A stretch of DNA of 64,000 bases from Escherichia phage EI-SP-GF: sequence record OR992645.1, one strand, 5' to 3'. Below, one piece after another: positions 8,932-14,082 of the stretch. The position numbers were made by a program, and so were the translations under genes. The notes under the pieces were generated by a model, which ran no database searches, was not told where the DNA came from, and was given only the letters and a program-made list of their open reading frames with translations. Within the stretch, counting starts at the first letter, position 1. The number at the start of each line of letters is the position of its first letter.

Positions 8932-10308
8932 ATGCCATATTTAGATAAAGTGGTAGATGTTACAGTTAACCTCGGAACCCAACCTATTGACACTGTAGGT
9001 TTCGAAACTCCCCTGTTCATCGCTATCCACAACAACTTTACTGAGCGAGCTCGCGTATATGCGGAGCTGGATCAGATGGTGGAAGATGGTTTCGCACAAG
9101 GCTCTGCAGCGTATGAGTTTGCAGCAAAAGCTTTTGGTGGTGTATTCCCTCCACAATATGTTATGATCGGCAGACAGGCCAAAGAAAAAACCACTGTAGA
9201 TTTTAAAGGTATTGCTGCCGCAGCTGATACTGATGTCGTAATGACTATTGCAAAAGGTGGCTACAATACCTCTCTGATAGTGCCTATCTCTGGTGGAACA
9301 GGTGCAACTCAGATTGCAGAGTCAATGAAGACTAAAATCGAAGCAGATGATAATTTGGACGGTATCACTGTAGAGGCTGAAGAAGGTGTTATCACCATCA
9401 CTGGTGACTGCACTGTTGGTTATCATACTGGTAACTATACAATCAAAAATATCGCCAATTCTGAAAAACCTTCTACAATAGTTGATAAGATCAATGCTGA
9501 GCGGGACAATTGGTACTTCCTGTGCCATGAAGACCACACCGACATTGAAGCATGTGCTAAGTGGGCTCAGGCCAACTACAAGCTGCACGTCTACTCTACT
9601 GCAGAAGATGTGACTGGCAAAGACAGTAACATCGCTACCAAACTGAAAGCTGCACAATATGACAGTGTTGGCATGTACGATCCTCGTGCAGATAAGGACT
9701 TCCCGGAGGGTGGTATCATAGGTGCTATGGCATCCAACGATCCGTCCTACGGTGACAGCTTGCACTTAAAACAGATGCCAGGTGTGATTGCACCATCTCT
9801 GACTTTAACTCAGCGTATGGCGATTTGGGAAAACCACGTTAACTTCTACAGAATGATTAACGGTGTTGGCGCTTTCTGGGAAGGTAAGTGTGCTTCAGGT
9901 CAGTATGCAGACGCTATTCGTTTTGCACACTGGATCAAGTTCAGATCTGAAGAATCCATGTTTGGGTACATGCATCGCCGCTCCAACATGGGTTTAAGCA
10001 TGAAGATGTCTGATGATGATCTTCCGGTTATCAAGTCTGTTCTGATGAACAACCCGATCAATACTGGCATTAAGAATGGCGCGATCCTGACAGGTTTTGA
10101 CGAAGACAACAATGTGTTCTACGACCCGATCATCACAGTTCCTAAACGTGCAGAGATCCCAACCAATCAGTTGGCTGCTCGTGTTCTGGAAGGTGTGAAA
10201 GTAGAACTGGTGTATAACAACGCCCTGCACTTCGTTCGTATCCGGATCAACGTCCTTCTGGACAAGGTTGGTTCTAAATCCACCAATGCTGTTGCAATGA
10301 CTGAATAA
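8932..10308 (+). CDS. tail sheath-like major tail protein
   Basis: 458-aa ORF followed by a 157-aa tube-sized protein, chaperones and tape measure; baseplate spike/wedge genes downstream support a contractile tail. Confidence 0.5.
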   Translation: MPYLDKVVDVTVNLGTQPIDTVGFETPLFIAIHNNFTERARVYAELDQMVEDGFAQGSAAYEFAAKAFGGVFPPQYVMIGRQAKEKTTVDFKGIAAAADTDVVMTIAKGGYNTSLIVPISGGTGATQIAESMKTKIEADDNLDGITVEAEEGVITITGDCTVGYHTGNYTIKNIANSEKPSTIVDKINAERDNWYFLCHEDHTDIEACAKWAQANYKLHVYSTAEDVTGKDSNIATKLKAAQYDSVGMYDPRADKDFPEGGIIGAMASNDPSYGDSLHLKQMPGVIAPSLTLTQRMAIWENHVNFYRMINGVGAFWEGKCASGQYADAIRFAHWIKFRSEESMFGYMHRRSNMGLSMKMSDDDLPVIKSVLMNNPINTGIKNGAILTGFDEDNNVFYDPIITVPKRAEIPTNQLAARVLEGVKVELVYNNALHFVRIRINVLLDKVGSKSTNAVAMTE

Positions 10309-10318
10309 GGAAGACTAG

Positions 10319-10792
10319 ATGGAAACTCAAATTTTAACTCCTTATGCTTATGACCCTAAAAAGGTCAAACTGTATCTGATGCAGCAGCGTGTCACTGGCT
10401 TCGCTGCTGACACCAAGATCGTTGTTTCAAGAAATGAAGACAACATCTACCCTCACGTTGGTGTGGATGGCGAAATGTCTGCGGCTCTGTCTCGTAACCA
10501 ATCTGGTGTTATGACTGTATCTTTGCAGAACACTTCTGTATGGAACGCCTACCTTTCCGACTGGCAGAAACAGGCATCAATTACTGGTCTGGTATTCTTC
10601 CCTGTTCTGCTGGAAGGTAGCCAGGGCCCTGGTATTGCCACAATCGGTTGGATCCAGAAACAGCCTGACCTGACTTATGGAACCGAAGTAGGTCAGCTGG
10701 ATTGGGATATCGGTATCCTGGATGCATGGCTCAACCGTGACAACATCACTGGTGCTCTCACTGGCCTCGCAGGTCTTGCAGGTATTATCTAA
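10319..10792 (+). CDS. tail tube protein
   Basis: 157-aa ORF between sheath-like gene and tail assembly chaperones, AAGGA RBS. Confidence 0.55.
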   Translation: METQILTPYAYDPKKVKLYLMQQRVTGFAADTKIVVSRNEDNIYPHVGVDGEMSAALSRNQSGVMTVSLQNTSVWNAYLSDWQKQASITGLVFFPVLLEGSQGPGIATIGWIQKQPDLTYGTEVGQLDWDIGILDAWLNRDNITGALTGLAGLAGII

Positions 10793-10810
10793 GAGCACAC
10801 TTCAGCATAA

Positions 10811-10841
10811 GCCTCACCTTCTGGTGGGGCTTTTTGCTTTT
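10811..10841 (+). terminator. rho-independent terminator after tube gene
   Basis: gcctcacc-ttct-ggtggggc stem-loop followed by tttttgctttt. Confidence 0.65.
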
Positions 10842-10882
10842 ATGGTTCTGACACACGTTCTTGAATTGCTTGAAAGGTTAAA

Positions 10883-10911
10883 TTGACAATGCACCATAAT
10901 CATGGTAAAAT
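10883..10911 (+). promoter_or_regulatory. sigma70-like promoter TTGACA-N17-TAAAAT with TGn
   Basis: ttgaca 10883-10888, spacer 17 nt ending tgg, taaaat 10906-10911. Confidence 0.5.
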
Positions 10912-10954
10912 ACACAAATATGGTGCACAACATGACTAATAAGGATGCTATAAA

Positions 10955-11428
10955 ATGGCTATAAACTTTAGACCTACAACAGAGATTGACTTAGCAGGGC
11001 ACAACTTCGTGATCACCCACTGGGGGCCGATGAAGGCAATGAAAAATATGCCTAAGATTGGCAAGATTGTGGCTGTCCCGTTAGGTGCTATCGGTGGATC
11101 TATTATCTCAGGTGGTCAGAATATGGCTGAGGTTCTTCCTACTGCTCTGGCCTACCTGTTCCAGGAGCTTGATGACAACTCTATTGAAGAGTTGTTTAAA
11201 ATCTTGTTCGAAGATATTACTGTAGACGGTGTGGATAGGCTTAATCCAGATGTTGTGTTTGCAGGGCATCTGCTGGAGATGATTAAACTGGCAGGTAAGG
11301 TTCTGGAGGTTAACTACGGCTGTTTTTTCACACAAGACGGTTTAGGAAGCCTTCTGGAGATGTTACAGCAGATGGGTATGATTCAGCAGGTGAACAATCT
11401 GGATCAGACTCCGGAAGAGCAGGAATAA
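10955..11428 (+). CDS. tail assembly chaperone (short form)
   Basis: 157-aa acidic ORF between tube and tape measure genes. Confidence 0.6.
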   Translation: MAINFRPTTEIDLAGHNFVITHWGPMKAMKNMPKIGKIVAVPLGAIGGSIISGGQNMAEVLPTALAYLFQELDDNSIEELFKILFEDITVDGVDRLNPDVVFAGHLLEMIKLAGKVLEVNYGCFFTQDGLGSLLEMLQQMGMIQQVNNLDQTPEEQE

Positions 11429-11688
11429 GCAAAGTTGTTGTGAGAGCCAGTGAGTGGGCAGCTAAGAACAGCTCACTTAACTGGTTCGACTTTCTTTGGT
11501 GTAGGGTGCTCAAGAACTTTAAAGGGGAAAATTTTGAATCGCTTAATCTTGCAGATATGGCGTATTTCCTCAAGCTGTGTGAGTATCTTGATATCGAAGA
11601 ATTCCTAGATACCGTCCAAAACAGGGAAATGGAGCGGGAGCAGAAGGCTGCCGCAGCTGCTGCGAAAGCTAAGCGCAGGAGAGGATAA
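10955..11688 (+). CDS. tail assembly chaperone, predicted -1 frameshift fusion product
   Basis: overlapping -1 frame ORF (track ORF 11440-11688 extends upstream to 11287) ends with a Lys/Arg/Ala-rich tail; classic G/GT-like arrangement upstream of tape measure. Confidence 0.4.
11323..11329 (+). other. candidate -1 programmed ribosomal frameshift slippery heptamer T_TTT_TTC
   Basis: 0-frame codons tgT TTT TTC in the chaperone ORF; the -1 frame is open from 11287 to 11688. Confidence 0.45.
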
Positions 11689-11693
11689 TCTAA

Positions 11694-11730
11694 GGGCCGG
11701 ATTCCTTTTCTGGGATCTGGCCCTTTTTAT
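11694..11730 (+). terminator. imperfect hairpin plus T-tract
   Basis: gggccggattcc ... gggatctggccc followed by tttttatt. Confidence 0.4.
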
Positions 11731-11742
11731 TATGAGGAAAAC

Positions 11743-14082
11743 ATGGCTACAAATAAGATAGTTGCCACAACAGTCAACAAGATTGGCTTTGAGATAGAGA
11801 ACTCCTCCTACAAAAAAGCTGTAGAGAAAATTCGCAGTATCGGGAAGGAGTTCAGGAAACTGGGCGAGGATTTTAACTCAGCCAACCCTATGAGCAGATG
11901 GCAGGCAGTGGCTGTTAAAACTCAGCAGACAATGCAACGTGTTGCCAGACAGCAATCCCAAGCAAATGCTAAACTGCACAGGGAGAGCGTTGCTCAGGCC
12001 AAGAAAGAGGCTGCAGTAAAGGCTGCAATAGAGCGCAGGGAGAATGCAAGACGTAAGCAAGCTGTAGGCAATATTACCGCCAAAAACCCAGAGATGGCTA
12101 GGATGCGTAAGTTCTACCAGCAGCAAGCTAAAGAGGCCAAAAAAGCTGCCAAATCTGCACCAGTATCCTATGGTGGTTATAAGGCACCTAAGGCAAGAGT
12201 TCTTGCTAACGCCAAGTCTTTCAGATATATCCCAGGCAACCCTAACATGGGTGGGGTGGCTTCAGATCCTAATCTTGTGAAAGCCCAGACTGCTGCCATG
12301 AACCGTTATCACAGACAGTTAAGAAGGGACAGCAAAGCTGGGATGGATAATAGGCTTATGGCAGATCGTGAGGCAAGGAGAACCCACCTCTACAACTCTG
12401 CGATAAGACTTTCTGCCAAATATGGTGCCGGATTCCGTGGTAGTCTGTCTGGATATTCGGAGTTGGAGTCCAGATTTGCTCGCGGGGAAATGAGTAAGTC
12501 AACCTTTAACGCCCACCTGTCTGCGTTGCAGTCTGGGTTTAAAAGTGCCACCAGCCAAACTCTGACCCTCGGTGATGCTATGAGGGATTTGCGTAGATCT
12601 GTAATCAACGCTACAGCTGCGTATACCGCTTTTTCTGGATTTGCTGCAGTTAACAGATCCGGTCATATGATGGAGGGGGCAAGTGCTGCTCTTACTGCTG
12701 TTACTGGAGATCCAAACAAAGCCAACAGTGAAGTTGCGTTTGTCCAGCAGGAGGCTATGCGTCTTGGTTTTGACCTCAAGTCTGGTCTTCAGGGTTATTC
12801 TCAGATGGCGGTGAACGCCAAAAATCAGATGACAAACCAAGAGGTGCATGAGCTATTCTCTGCATACTCGCAGTATGCTGCTGCTTACGGTGCCGATGAG
12901 GTAAAATACCAGCGCGGTATTATGGCAATCCAGCAAATGCTCGGTAAAGGGCAAGTAATGTCCGAAGAACTGAAGCAACAACTTGCTGAAGCATTACCTG
13001 GTGCATACGAACCTTTTATCAAAGCTACCCAAGAGGCTTTTGGTCTTGCTGAGCTCTCCATGGATCAGTTCATGGATATGATGAAAAAAGGTGAAGTTAA
13101 AACAGCCAAGATCATGAAGTATGTGGCTAAGTACATGAATGAGGCATCTGCAGCTGGTTATGAAAGAATGCAGAAGTCTAACGTACTGGCAGAAAACAGA
13201 CTGAAAACCTTTATTGAACTGTCCCGTCAGAAACTGTTCACACGTTGGGCAGATGAGCTGACAGAGTTCTACTACACCTTAATCCGCACAGGTGAGACCC
13301 TGCAATTTGTGTGGGATGCCGCTGGTGATTTTGTTAGCGGGTTTGTGAGAGGTTTGAACTGGGTTGTTGGTGAACTAAACAACACTATAGTTAAGATCCG
13401 TTTGTTTTTCCTTGAATGGGGAATTAAATGGGGTATCATAACTGCTAAGACGAAGGAATATTCCGAAGAGATACATGACACCTTTAGCATGGCTAAATGG
13501 GCAGGGTATGCTGCTGCAATCATGCTGGTAGTGAACGCCCTTACCAAAGGGTTTGTTATGGCATCCATGCTTGTAAAAACATTTAAGTTCCTCAGCAACC
13601 TGAGAGGTGCAGCTGGAGCTGCAGGTGCTGGTGCAGTAACCGCAGACGGCTCTGGAGGAGGAGCAGCCGGAAAAGGTGGTGGAGGCATTAAGACGCCTGG
13701 CGGTAAAGTTGGCATTCTTGGCAAACTAGGTATCATTGGCACAATACTGAGTGCCGGAGAACTATTTAATGACCGTTTCAACCCGCTGAGTGAAAGAAAT
13801 CAACAGCTGGATACCATCAGCGATATGATTCGTAAAGACATCATATCTGGAGGTAACGGGTTTGTTGATCCTCTAAGCACCTTGCCGGGAGGTACTCTTC
13901 CGTTACCAGGTGGTCCTGGTTTTGCTTCTCAATTAAGAACCATGGAAATGCTACCTTTAGAGATCAGTGATGGTAAAATCACGATTTCAATAGATGAGGG
14001 TGAGTTTAGCAAAATATTTGATGCAAAACTTGAGTGGGAGAACAGTAAAGATATCAACTTTATGTCCACAGACCTTTGGTAA
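11743..14082 (+). CDS. tail tape measure protein
   Basis: 779 aa, long alpha-helical N-terminal half, Gly-rich segment GAAGAAGAGAVTADGSGGGAAGKGGGG, position after chaperone pair. Confidence 0.8.
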   Translation: MATNKIVATTVNKIGFEIENSSYKKAVEKIRSIGKEFRKLGEDFNSANPMSRWQAVAVKTQQTMQRVARQQSQANAKLHRESVAQAKKEAAVKAAIERRENARRKQAVGNITAKNPEMARMRKFYQQQAKEAKKAAKSAPVSYGGYKAPKARVLANAKSFRYIPGNPNMGGVASDPNLVKAQTAAMNRYHRQLRRDSKAGMDNRLMADREARRTHLYNSAIRLSAKYGAGFRGSLSGYSELESRFARGEMSKSTFNAHLSALQSGFKSATSQTLTLGDAMRDLRRSVINATAAYTAFSGFAAVNRSGHMMEGASAALTAVTGDPNKANSEVAFVQQEAMRLGFDLKSGLQGYSQMAVNAKNQMTNQEVHELFSAYSQYAAAYGADEVKYQRGIMAIQQMLGKGQVMSEELKQQLAEALPGAYEPFIKATQEAFGLAELSMDQFMDMMKKGEVKTAKIMKYVAKYMNEASAAGYERMQKSNVLAENRLKTFIELSRQKLFTRWADELTEFYYTLIRTGETLQFVWDAAGDFVSGFVRGLNWVVGELNNTIVKIRLFFLEWGIKWGIITAKTKEYSEEIHDTFSMAKWAGYAAAIMLVVNALTKGFVMASMLVKTFKFLSNLRGAAGAAGAGAVTADGSGGGAAGKGGGGIKTPGGKVGILGKLGIIGTILSAGELFNDRFNPLSERNQQLDTISDMIRKDIISGGNGFVDPLSTLPGGTLPLPGGPGFASQLRTMEMLPLEISDGKITISIDEGEFSKIFDAKLEWENSKDINFMSTDLW

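Follow-up and report, generated by a model that had tools for sequence, protein, structure and literature searches.

Introduction

A conserved frameshift in tail assembly chaperone (TAC) genes has been described for gpG/gpGT of phage lambda and for long-tailed phages in general (Levin 1993; Xu, Hendrix & Duda 2004, 2013, 2014; summarised in PMC5009743), and a higher efficiency was noted for the chaperone frameshift of phage P2 (PMC5009743). A -1 frameshift producing TAC-N and TAC-NC was also proposed in silico at an invariant GTTTTT in Vandenendeviridae (Pakpunavirus and Nankokuvirus) and Andersonviridae (PMC12846349, Dec 2025), where the G_GTT_TTT place of Pseudomonas phage PAK_P3 is given as the proposed -1 frameshift site. 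In the available part of that article, Vandenendeviridae and Andersonviridae are related to Vequintavirinae by virion architecture, and the frameshift analysis covers the first two families only. In the literature, we found no report of this chaperone frameshift in Vequintavirinae/rV5 or Stephanstirmvirinae. The present study concerns the TAC gene of Escherichia phage EI-SP-GF (OR992645.1), which lies in an analyzed stretch of 64,000 nucleotides (the window; coordinates refer to its plus strand). It is highly probable that this phage makes a long form of the chaperone by a G/GT-type -1 ribosomal slip at the heptamer TTTTTTC.

Proposed slip site and predicted fusion protein

The chaperone open reading frame (ORF; 10955-11428), preceded by an AGGA ribosome-binding site (10942-10945), encodes in the zero frame a short form (TAC-N) of 157 aa. 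A significant match was obtained with Pfam PF21822 (Phage_TAC_15; E = 3e-23, 83 bits against a cut-off of 22) and with PHROG 3840 'tail assembly chaperone' (E = 1e-68), and the homologue is labelled as a tail assembly chaperone in phages Murica and VB-EcoM-WM. As assigned by sequence family, the 157-aa ORF is a clear member of the TAC family, in agreement with an earlier note on this DNA, which had named the same ORF as the chaperone. The heptamer T_TTT_TTC (Cys-Phe-Phe; 11323-11329), the proposed -1 slip site, is covered by the zero-frame codons TGT (11321-11323), TTT (11324-11326), and TTC (11327-11329); the phase is therefore exactly X_XXY_YYZ, as the note had also stated. No other canonical heptamer was found in 11314-11428. 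The sequence U_UU.U_UU.C belongs to the class H_HH.U_UU.Y, which is efficient in E. coli and used by insertion sequence (IS) elements, and U_UU.C ranks above U_UU.U among the A-site tetramers in this bacterium (PMC4066793).

With respect to the chaperone ORF, which it overlaps, the ORF ending at 11688 lies in the -1 frame. The earlier note took this frame to be open from 11287 to 11688; the end was correct, and the start was not. TAA stops occur in the -1 frame at 11284-11286, 11296-11298, and 11311-11313, the last of which sets the 5' limit for a productive slip, and the frame is open only from 11314, which is 9 nt 5' of the heptamer. This correction does not weaken the interpretation and only narrows the possible slip window, to 11314-11428. 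The predicted slip product has 125 + 119 = 244 aa, close to the fusion of about 245 aa estimated in the note, and its C-terminus (...EREQKAAAAAAKAKRRRG) is basic and rich in Ala, Lys, and Arg, as had been proposed. The predicted junction is ...VNYGCFF|HTRRFRK..., and the tryptic junction peptide is VLEVNYGCFFHTR. The slip would occur at residue 125, and the PF21822 domain ends at residue 129 of the chaperone. In the 244-aa long form (TAC-NC), the linker and the 'T'-like C-terminal domain would come from the -1 extension (11329-11688; 119 codons and a stop). The overlap (11329-11428) is dual-coding: the short form ends in a conserved tail specified by the zero frame, which is the constrained one, and the linker of the long form, rich in Gly, Ser, and Asp, is specified by the -1 frame. 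The AlphaFold2 model of the 244-aa fusion, calculated with no alignment, was unusable (predicted local distance difference test score of 37.8) and indicated merely a coil at ~123-152 between helical parts.

The occurrence of the heptamer by itself was not significant: TTTTTTC occurs 8 times on both strands of the window against 16.6 ± 3.8 expected from shuffles. The motif is under-represented in the window, with two copies on the plus strand, the second of which (8327) is out of phase in its ORF. The 121 -1-frame codons that precede the heptamer contain 13 stops, and the 119 that follow contain none. If stops were as dense 3' of the heptamer as 5' of it, all 119 codons would be stop-free with a probability of ~1e-6, and the 37 codons before a GTG at 11440 (see below) with one of ~0.015.

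Conservation of the heptamer among relatives

Homologous loci were collected from IMG/VR (34), metagenomes (47), and GenBank phages, with protein identities of 26-99%. They included Vequintavirus, Henunavirus, CR3-like phages, Stephanstirmvirinae (phi92 and phAPEC8-like), Plateaulakevirus, and many environmental contigs; the site was carried by 91 loci, corresponding to 58 distinct contexts of 127 nt. The heptamer was TTTTTTC in 57 of the 58 contexts and TTTTTTT in the remaining one (L035). The codon before the Phe-Phe pair was TGT (29), TCT (19), AGT (7), or CCT (3): three different amino acids, each with a T-ending codon throughout, against a background of 27% T at the third position. Similarly, the first Phe codon was TTT in every context, in comparison with 45% of Phe codons in the same genes. 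Since wobble positions nearby (Val, Asn, Tyr, and Gly) varied freely, it is the RNA heptamer, and not the protein alone, that is constrained.

The -1 frame remained open in all 91 loci. In 23 representative loci, -1-frame stops were found at 248 of 2886 codons upstream of the heptamer and at none of the 687 overlap codons, and the +1 frame of the same overlap contained 35 stops. The last -1 stop was frequently 9-15 nt 5' of the heptamer, and only 3 nt in Aeromonas phage 4L372D. The peptide R-F-R, encoded just past the slip, was invariant across the Vequinta/Stephanstirm-like group. Conservation across lineages places the site, as judged from these comparisons, far beyond chance. The suggestion of the earlier note that this is the conserved G/GT-type frameshift upstream of tape measure genes is thereby supported by 91 loci, by codon choice, and by the stop-free -1 frame.

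Two homologues carry other motifs. In the chaperone of Rheinheimera phage Barba21A (L092, MK719733.1), TTTTTTC and the Phe-Phe pair are lost ('HYGCLTSGKSF'), and the G_GGA_AAG of lambda is found in phase at 1218-1224 of that locus, 9 nt further 3', followed by a -1 extension of 93 codons. PAK_P3 (L091, NC_022970.1) has G_GTT_TTT at the homologous spot. Three slip motifs, U_UUU_UUC, G_GUU_UUU, and G_GGA_AAG, are thus found at or next to the same place in one protein family, and Barba21A is a natural swap of the slippery motif within this family. Profile-profile comparison of the C-terminal domains between the enterobacterial and the distant environmental/Pseudomonas groups did not show homology (probability of 0.5%); the slip site is nonetheless common to both.

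These replacements bear on transcriptional slippage, in which RNA polymerase would add one U at the T6 run in some transcripts (UGU UUU UUU CAC...). Because one added U yields the identical 244-aa protein, conservation of the frame does not separate this process from a ribosomal slip. The site is indeed a homopolymer run, which is lengthened to T7 in one homologue (L035), and U7/A7 runs are avoided in E. coli genes, possibly on account of such stuttering (PMC4066793). On the other hand, known transcriptional slippage in bacteria takes place at runs of ~9 A or T (PMC5009743), for which T6 is too short, and the run is capped by C in 57 of 58 contexts, even though replacing TTC with the synonymous TTT would make it longer. 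The run is also invariably in the single phase needed by a ribosomal slip, and G_GGA_AAG (Barba21A) and T5 (PAK_P3) are poor for polymerase stuttering but fine for the ribosome; in particular, the motif replacement in Barba21A favors ribosomal over transcriptional slippage. We therefore regard polymerase slippage as very unlikely here.

A second conserved element lies close by: GGTTTCG is kept 9-15 nt 3' of the heptamer in most relatives, at equivalent sites of L010-L026, L017-L022, and L039-L042. It contains an in-phase U_UUC and reads as Gly-Phe in frame 0 and as Arg-Phe-Arg in frame -1. GGTTTAG (U_UUA) is the sequence at this position of the window (11339-11345). The slip might thus be located elsewhere in the overlap, for example as an A-site-only event at a tetramer that lies in phase 12 nt further 3' (GGU_UUA here and GGU_UUC in most relatives): the -1 frame is open across both sites, the element is strongly conserved, and U_UU.C is the second-best tetramer in E. 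coli (PMC4066793). This location is hardly credible, since U_UUA is a poor motif and heptamers are ~10-fold more efficient than tetramers (PMC4066793), and since the distant clade has GGT ATT, with no motif, and yet retains TTTTTTC. Dual coding of Gly-Phe and Arg-Phe-Arg is able to explain the conservation. A ribosomal slip at TTTTTTC remains the preferred explanation.

Coding status and expression of the -1 frame

In comparison with phage Murica, the -1 ORF showed dN (nonsynonymous divergence) of 0 and dS (synonymous divergence) of 0.22 over 85 codons; by this substitution pattern, it is a genuine coding sequence under purifying selection. It matched PHROG 10409 (E = 2e-51), a family of unknown function, as are all the PHROG matches of the shorter 82-aa ORF described below, and a Pfam search of the -1 ORF gave no match.

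In GenBank relatives, a 'hypothetical protein' of 82 aa (11440-11688) is annotated as a gene of its own that starts at a GTG (11440-11442). There would then be two separate genes, with the 82-aa protein made from this GTG, perhaps by termination-reinitiation after the TAA at 11426, and with the heptamer reflecting only a Phe-Phe pair required by the protein. The records of Murica and phi92 are annotated in this manner, the GTG is only 12 nt past the zero-frame stop, and Phe-Phe is invariant at the protein level. A need for Phe-Phe leaves unexplained the T-ending codon for Cys, Ser, or Pro and the constant choice of TTT followed by TTC, and it does not account for the absence of stops from the 687 overlap codons. 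No convincing Shine-Dalgarno (SD) sequence precedes the GTG, which is not conserved: it is replaced by TTG in the nearest diverged group (L006). The first ATG, GTG, or TTG in the -1 extension is codon 82 in L010 and phage Hena1, codon 86 in L013, and codons 64-70 in L012 and L017-L022. The conserved downstream domain (ISKVVxRAxEYAxKNSSLxWFDYLW...) begins at approximately codon 40, with the ISKVV residues at or before the GTG, and hence these start codons, ~60-86 codons in, fall well inside it. Since many relatives have no start codon until deep in this domain, GTG 11440 is not the general route of expression, and it is probably not the main one in the window. Independent initiation there, which the earlier note itself had offered as the rival outcome, is contradicted for the family by the unconserved start. 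Annotators have also not agreed on a gene: the records of slur16, Hena1, Ro121c4YLVW, and ABPW7 leave a gap of ~290-400 nt before the tape measure gene with no gene called, and other records call the -1 part a truncated 'hypothetical protein'. Taken together, we consider two separate genes to be very improbable, even slightly more so than slippage by the polymerase, and a -1 slip within the chaperone gene to be the better account of the -1 ORF.

Several points weigh against this account. A slippage join was annotated in none of the 11 GenBank records inspected, and a search of the protein database, with 73 hits to the chaperone (all of 149-159 aa) and 3 to the -1 part, revealed no natural in-frame fusion. 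In the window itself, GTG 11440 could still yield an independent 82-aa product, possibly by the reinitiation mentioned above. One of the two search patterns for the loci included the Phe-Phe pair, and conservation of these amino acids was thus partly built in, with no effect on codon choice; the lineages are related, so that pooled counts and P-values overstate independence and are to be discounted. Support for the fusion protein is at the level of sequence. Furthermore, no significant RNA structure was detected 3' of the heptamer in the window, the z values being +0.75, +0.6, -1.41, and -1.43 for folded segments of 53, 60, 101, and 110 nt, respectively. The stem-loop or pseudoknot that the earlier note had suggested looking for in 11330-11400 accordingly found no support, and no stable hairpin or pseudoknot was observed 5-9 nt 3' of the heptamer in the window. 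In spite of these points, all of the sequence features of a G/GT-type site were found: the position, the TAC family, the in-phase heptamer, the -1 ORF, and conservation.

Possible stimulators

An internal SD-like GGAGG (11305-11309) is located 13 nt 5' of the heptamer. For SD-like elements, Larsen et al. are said to have reported, in 1994, a spacing of ~10-14 nt 5' of the heptamer. GGAGG, GAGG, or GGAG was found at the same position in 45 of the 58 distinct contexts (lineages not being independent) and was absent from 13. The Glu codon that forms this element was GAG in 45 and GAA in 8 cases, whereas at other places in these genes the two codons numbered 174 and 292, respectively. These results suggest that GGAGG may be an upstream stimulator like those of dnaX and IS elements, from which the role is drawn by analogy (PMC5009743), and one that is not universal.

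Downstream, a long-range RNA helix was predicted between 11349-11359 and 11409-11420 (11349-11420; 19 nt 3' of the heptamer). It was not supported as a stimulator: the z value was -1.4, the spacer was too long, and the pairing was not conserved in L006. Pairing of ACCGTC (11611-11616) with GACGGT (11336-11341) was rejected as coincidence, there being no compensating change in the L006 group.

RNAalifold over 12 relatives revealed no structure, owing to misalignment of the 3' arms. When the alignment was anchored by hand, it gave a 6-bp long-range helix with two covarying pairs, in which 95% of cells were paired against 18-54% in slid controls; the covariation represents two or three evolutionary events only. 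This helix was found in relatives of 145-150 kb (L010-L026 and L017-L022), and the lineage of the window has no 3' arm. Its 5' arm starts 6 nt past the heptamer, and 2-3 nt separate the zero-frame stop from its 3' arm, so that the helix encloses the whole overlap of ~90-105 nt. The variants of the pairs were GA/UC, AG/CU, and GG/CC (AU to GC), and the Pro codon in the 3' arm was always CCG. Compact hairpins with z = -2.3 to -4.1 were found in the distant clade. These helices and hairpins are leads for the relatives only and not for the lineage of the window.

A composite signal across phage families is conceivable, consisting of the invariant nascent peptide (L)EVNYGxFF with the GGAGG formed by its codons, the heptamer, and, in many relatives, the long-range helix; we regard it as doubtful. 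If true, the helix would be melted by every ribosome terminating at the zero-frame stop, and such melting could couple the slip rate to ribosome traffic and thereby set the ratio of the short to the long form.

Proposed mechanism

We infer the ribosomal slip itself, a low ratio of the long to the short form, the roles of the domains, and the effect of the SD-like element as follows. The chaperone gene (10955-11428) would give two proteins from one mRNA. The majority of ribosomes would read the zero frame to the TAA at 11426 and produce the 157-aa short form, and a minority would slip with tRNA-Phe on UUU in the P site and on UUC in the A site, both of which can re-pair one base back on UUU_UUU. 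GGAGG may possibly raise the slip rate by pairing with the anti-SD sequence of 16S rRNA. Slipped ribosomes would resume at CAC (11329) in the -1 frame and continue to the TAA at 11686-11688, giving the 244-aa long form. Three parts are predicted in it: the TAC domain at the N-terminus, common to both forms, an acidic Gly/Ser linker encoded by the overlap, and a helical C-terminal domain with a basic tail. If the two forms act like lambda gpG/gpGT (PMC5009743) and P2 E/E+E', the tape measure protein would be coated by the N-terminal domain, and the C-terminal domain, being rare, would bring in the tail tube protein, after which the tube and sheath would polymerise to the right length. Both chaperone forms would be absent from the finished virion.

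Genomic context

The region 10300-12300 was 98% identical to a metagenomic phage of Vequintavirinae and shared ~95% identity with over 100 rV5-like Escherichia phages (~137 kb). The gene order is sheath, tube, chaperone, -1 ORF, and tape measure, which is the position of a G/GT-type gene pair. The tail sheath gene (8932-10308) was assigned from a relative in which the gene before the rV5 Orf52 counterpart is annotated as tail sheath. The upstream gene at 10319-10792 (157 aa) is probably the tail tube gene; the gene in this position is a 'virion structural protein' (rV5 Orf52) in the annotation of one relative, and a 'tail tube protein' is listed regionally in two BASEL records. The tape measure protein gene (11743-14082; 779 aa) is annotated as such in relatives.

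A promoter-like site (TTGACA-17 nt-TAAAAT, with TG before the second hexamer; 10883-10911) agrees with the consensus at 11 of 12 positions, suggesting a promoter function. A terminator-like hairpin of 14 pairs with a T-run (11692-11725) separates the -1 ORF from the tape measure gene; its counterpart is annotated as a terminator in phage Murica. A further terminator-like hairpin was observed at 10809-10832, 3' of the tube gene, and with these three elements (10809-10832, 10883-10911, and 11692-11725), the chaperone gene looks like a small transcription unit of its own. A weak promoter-like match inside the overlap (TGGAGA-16-TATGAT; 9/12; 11355-11382) is probably due to chance (2 sites against 1.8 expected). 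In PAK_P3, an antisense noncoding RNA, based on RNA-seq, is annotated on the minus strand (L091, 1450-2100), reaching from the end of the -1 ORF into the beginning of the tape measure gene. Approximately 23 GenBank records of 'Campylobacter phage' (MG0656xx; host C. jejuni) match E. coli rV5-like phages in the tail region, with ~95% identity in DNA and 97-100% in protein, which suggests mislabelled hosts or contamination.

Significance and comparison with known systems

The site is a real but ordinary case of the known tail-chaperone frameshift, which would not surprise a specialist, and it leaves knowledge of frameshifting and tail assembly unchanged. Its practical value lies chiefly in annotation: the chaperone family is found in ~500 deposited phage genomes (495 records matched), including those of rV5-like, phi92-like, CR3-like, and Aeromonas phages. 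An overlooked essential product of tail assembly matters for phage engineering and synthetic rebooting, since a codon-optimised or 'cleaned-up' genome would destroy the slip site. The loci also form a comparative data set on the evolution of slip sites, with three motifs in one family.

The cassettes of E. coli dnaX and IS elements, which combine an upstream SD, a heptamer, and a downstream hairpin, resemble the present site in the in-phase heptamer and in GGAGG ~13 nt upstream, which is enriched beyond codon usage. They differ in that no supported hairpin lies 5-9 nt downstream in the window and the SD-like element is missing in 13 of 58 contexts, and the efficiency expected here is low rather than ~50%.

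For the chaperone frameshift of P2 (E/E+E'), the slippery sequence is said to have been given as T_TTT_TTG by Christie et al. in 2002. P2 and the present phage both have a contractile tail, a U6-type heptamer, and, 5' of the tape measure gene, a -1 ORF without its own ribosome-binding site. The protein families are unrelated by sequence, and the heptamer ends in C instead of G, with Phe instead of Leu as the A-site tRNA.

In common with lambda G/GT, the locus has two overlapping ORFs, the second of them in the -1 frame, just 5' of the tape measure gene, as well as an in-phase slippery heptamer, an N-terminal domain shared by both products, and no strong downstream structure. Lambda G and T show no detectable resemblance in sequence to the present proteins, the family here being PF21822, and the heptamer is U_UUU_UUC instead of G_GGA_AAG. 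Other differences are that the virus is a contractile-tailed phage of 137 kb, that the slip would take place 33 codons before the zero-frame stop, so that the short form has its own conserved tail of 32 aa, that a possible SD-like element lies upstream, and that the fusion is here a prediction from sequence.

The closest resemblance is to the sister families Vandenendeviridae and Andersonviridae (PMC12846349). The public misannotation is the same, namely a 'hypothetical protein' or a gap, and so is the type of evidence, a -1 frame free of stops across alleles; their motif G_GUU_UUU permits good re-pairing in the A site only, whereas U_UUU_UUC would permit a full tandem slip. The site of PAK_P3 is homologous to that of EI-SP-GF: '...LNFGSVF' (TCG GTT TTT C) aligns residue for residue with '...VNYGCFF', and in both R-F-R then follows in the -1 frame.

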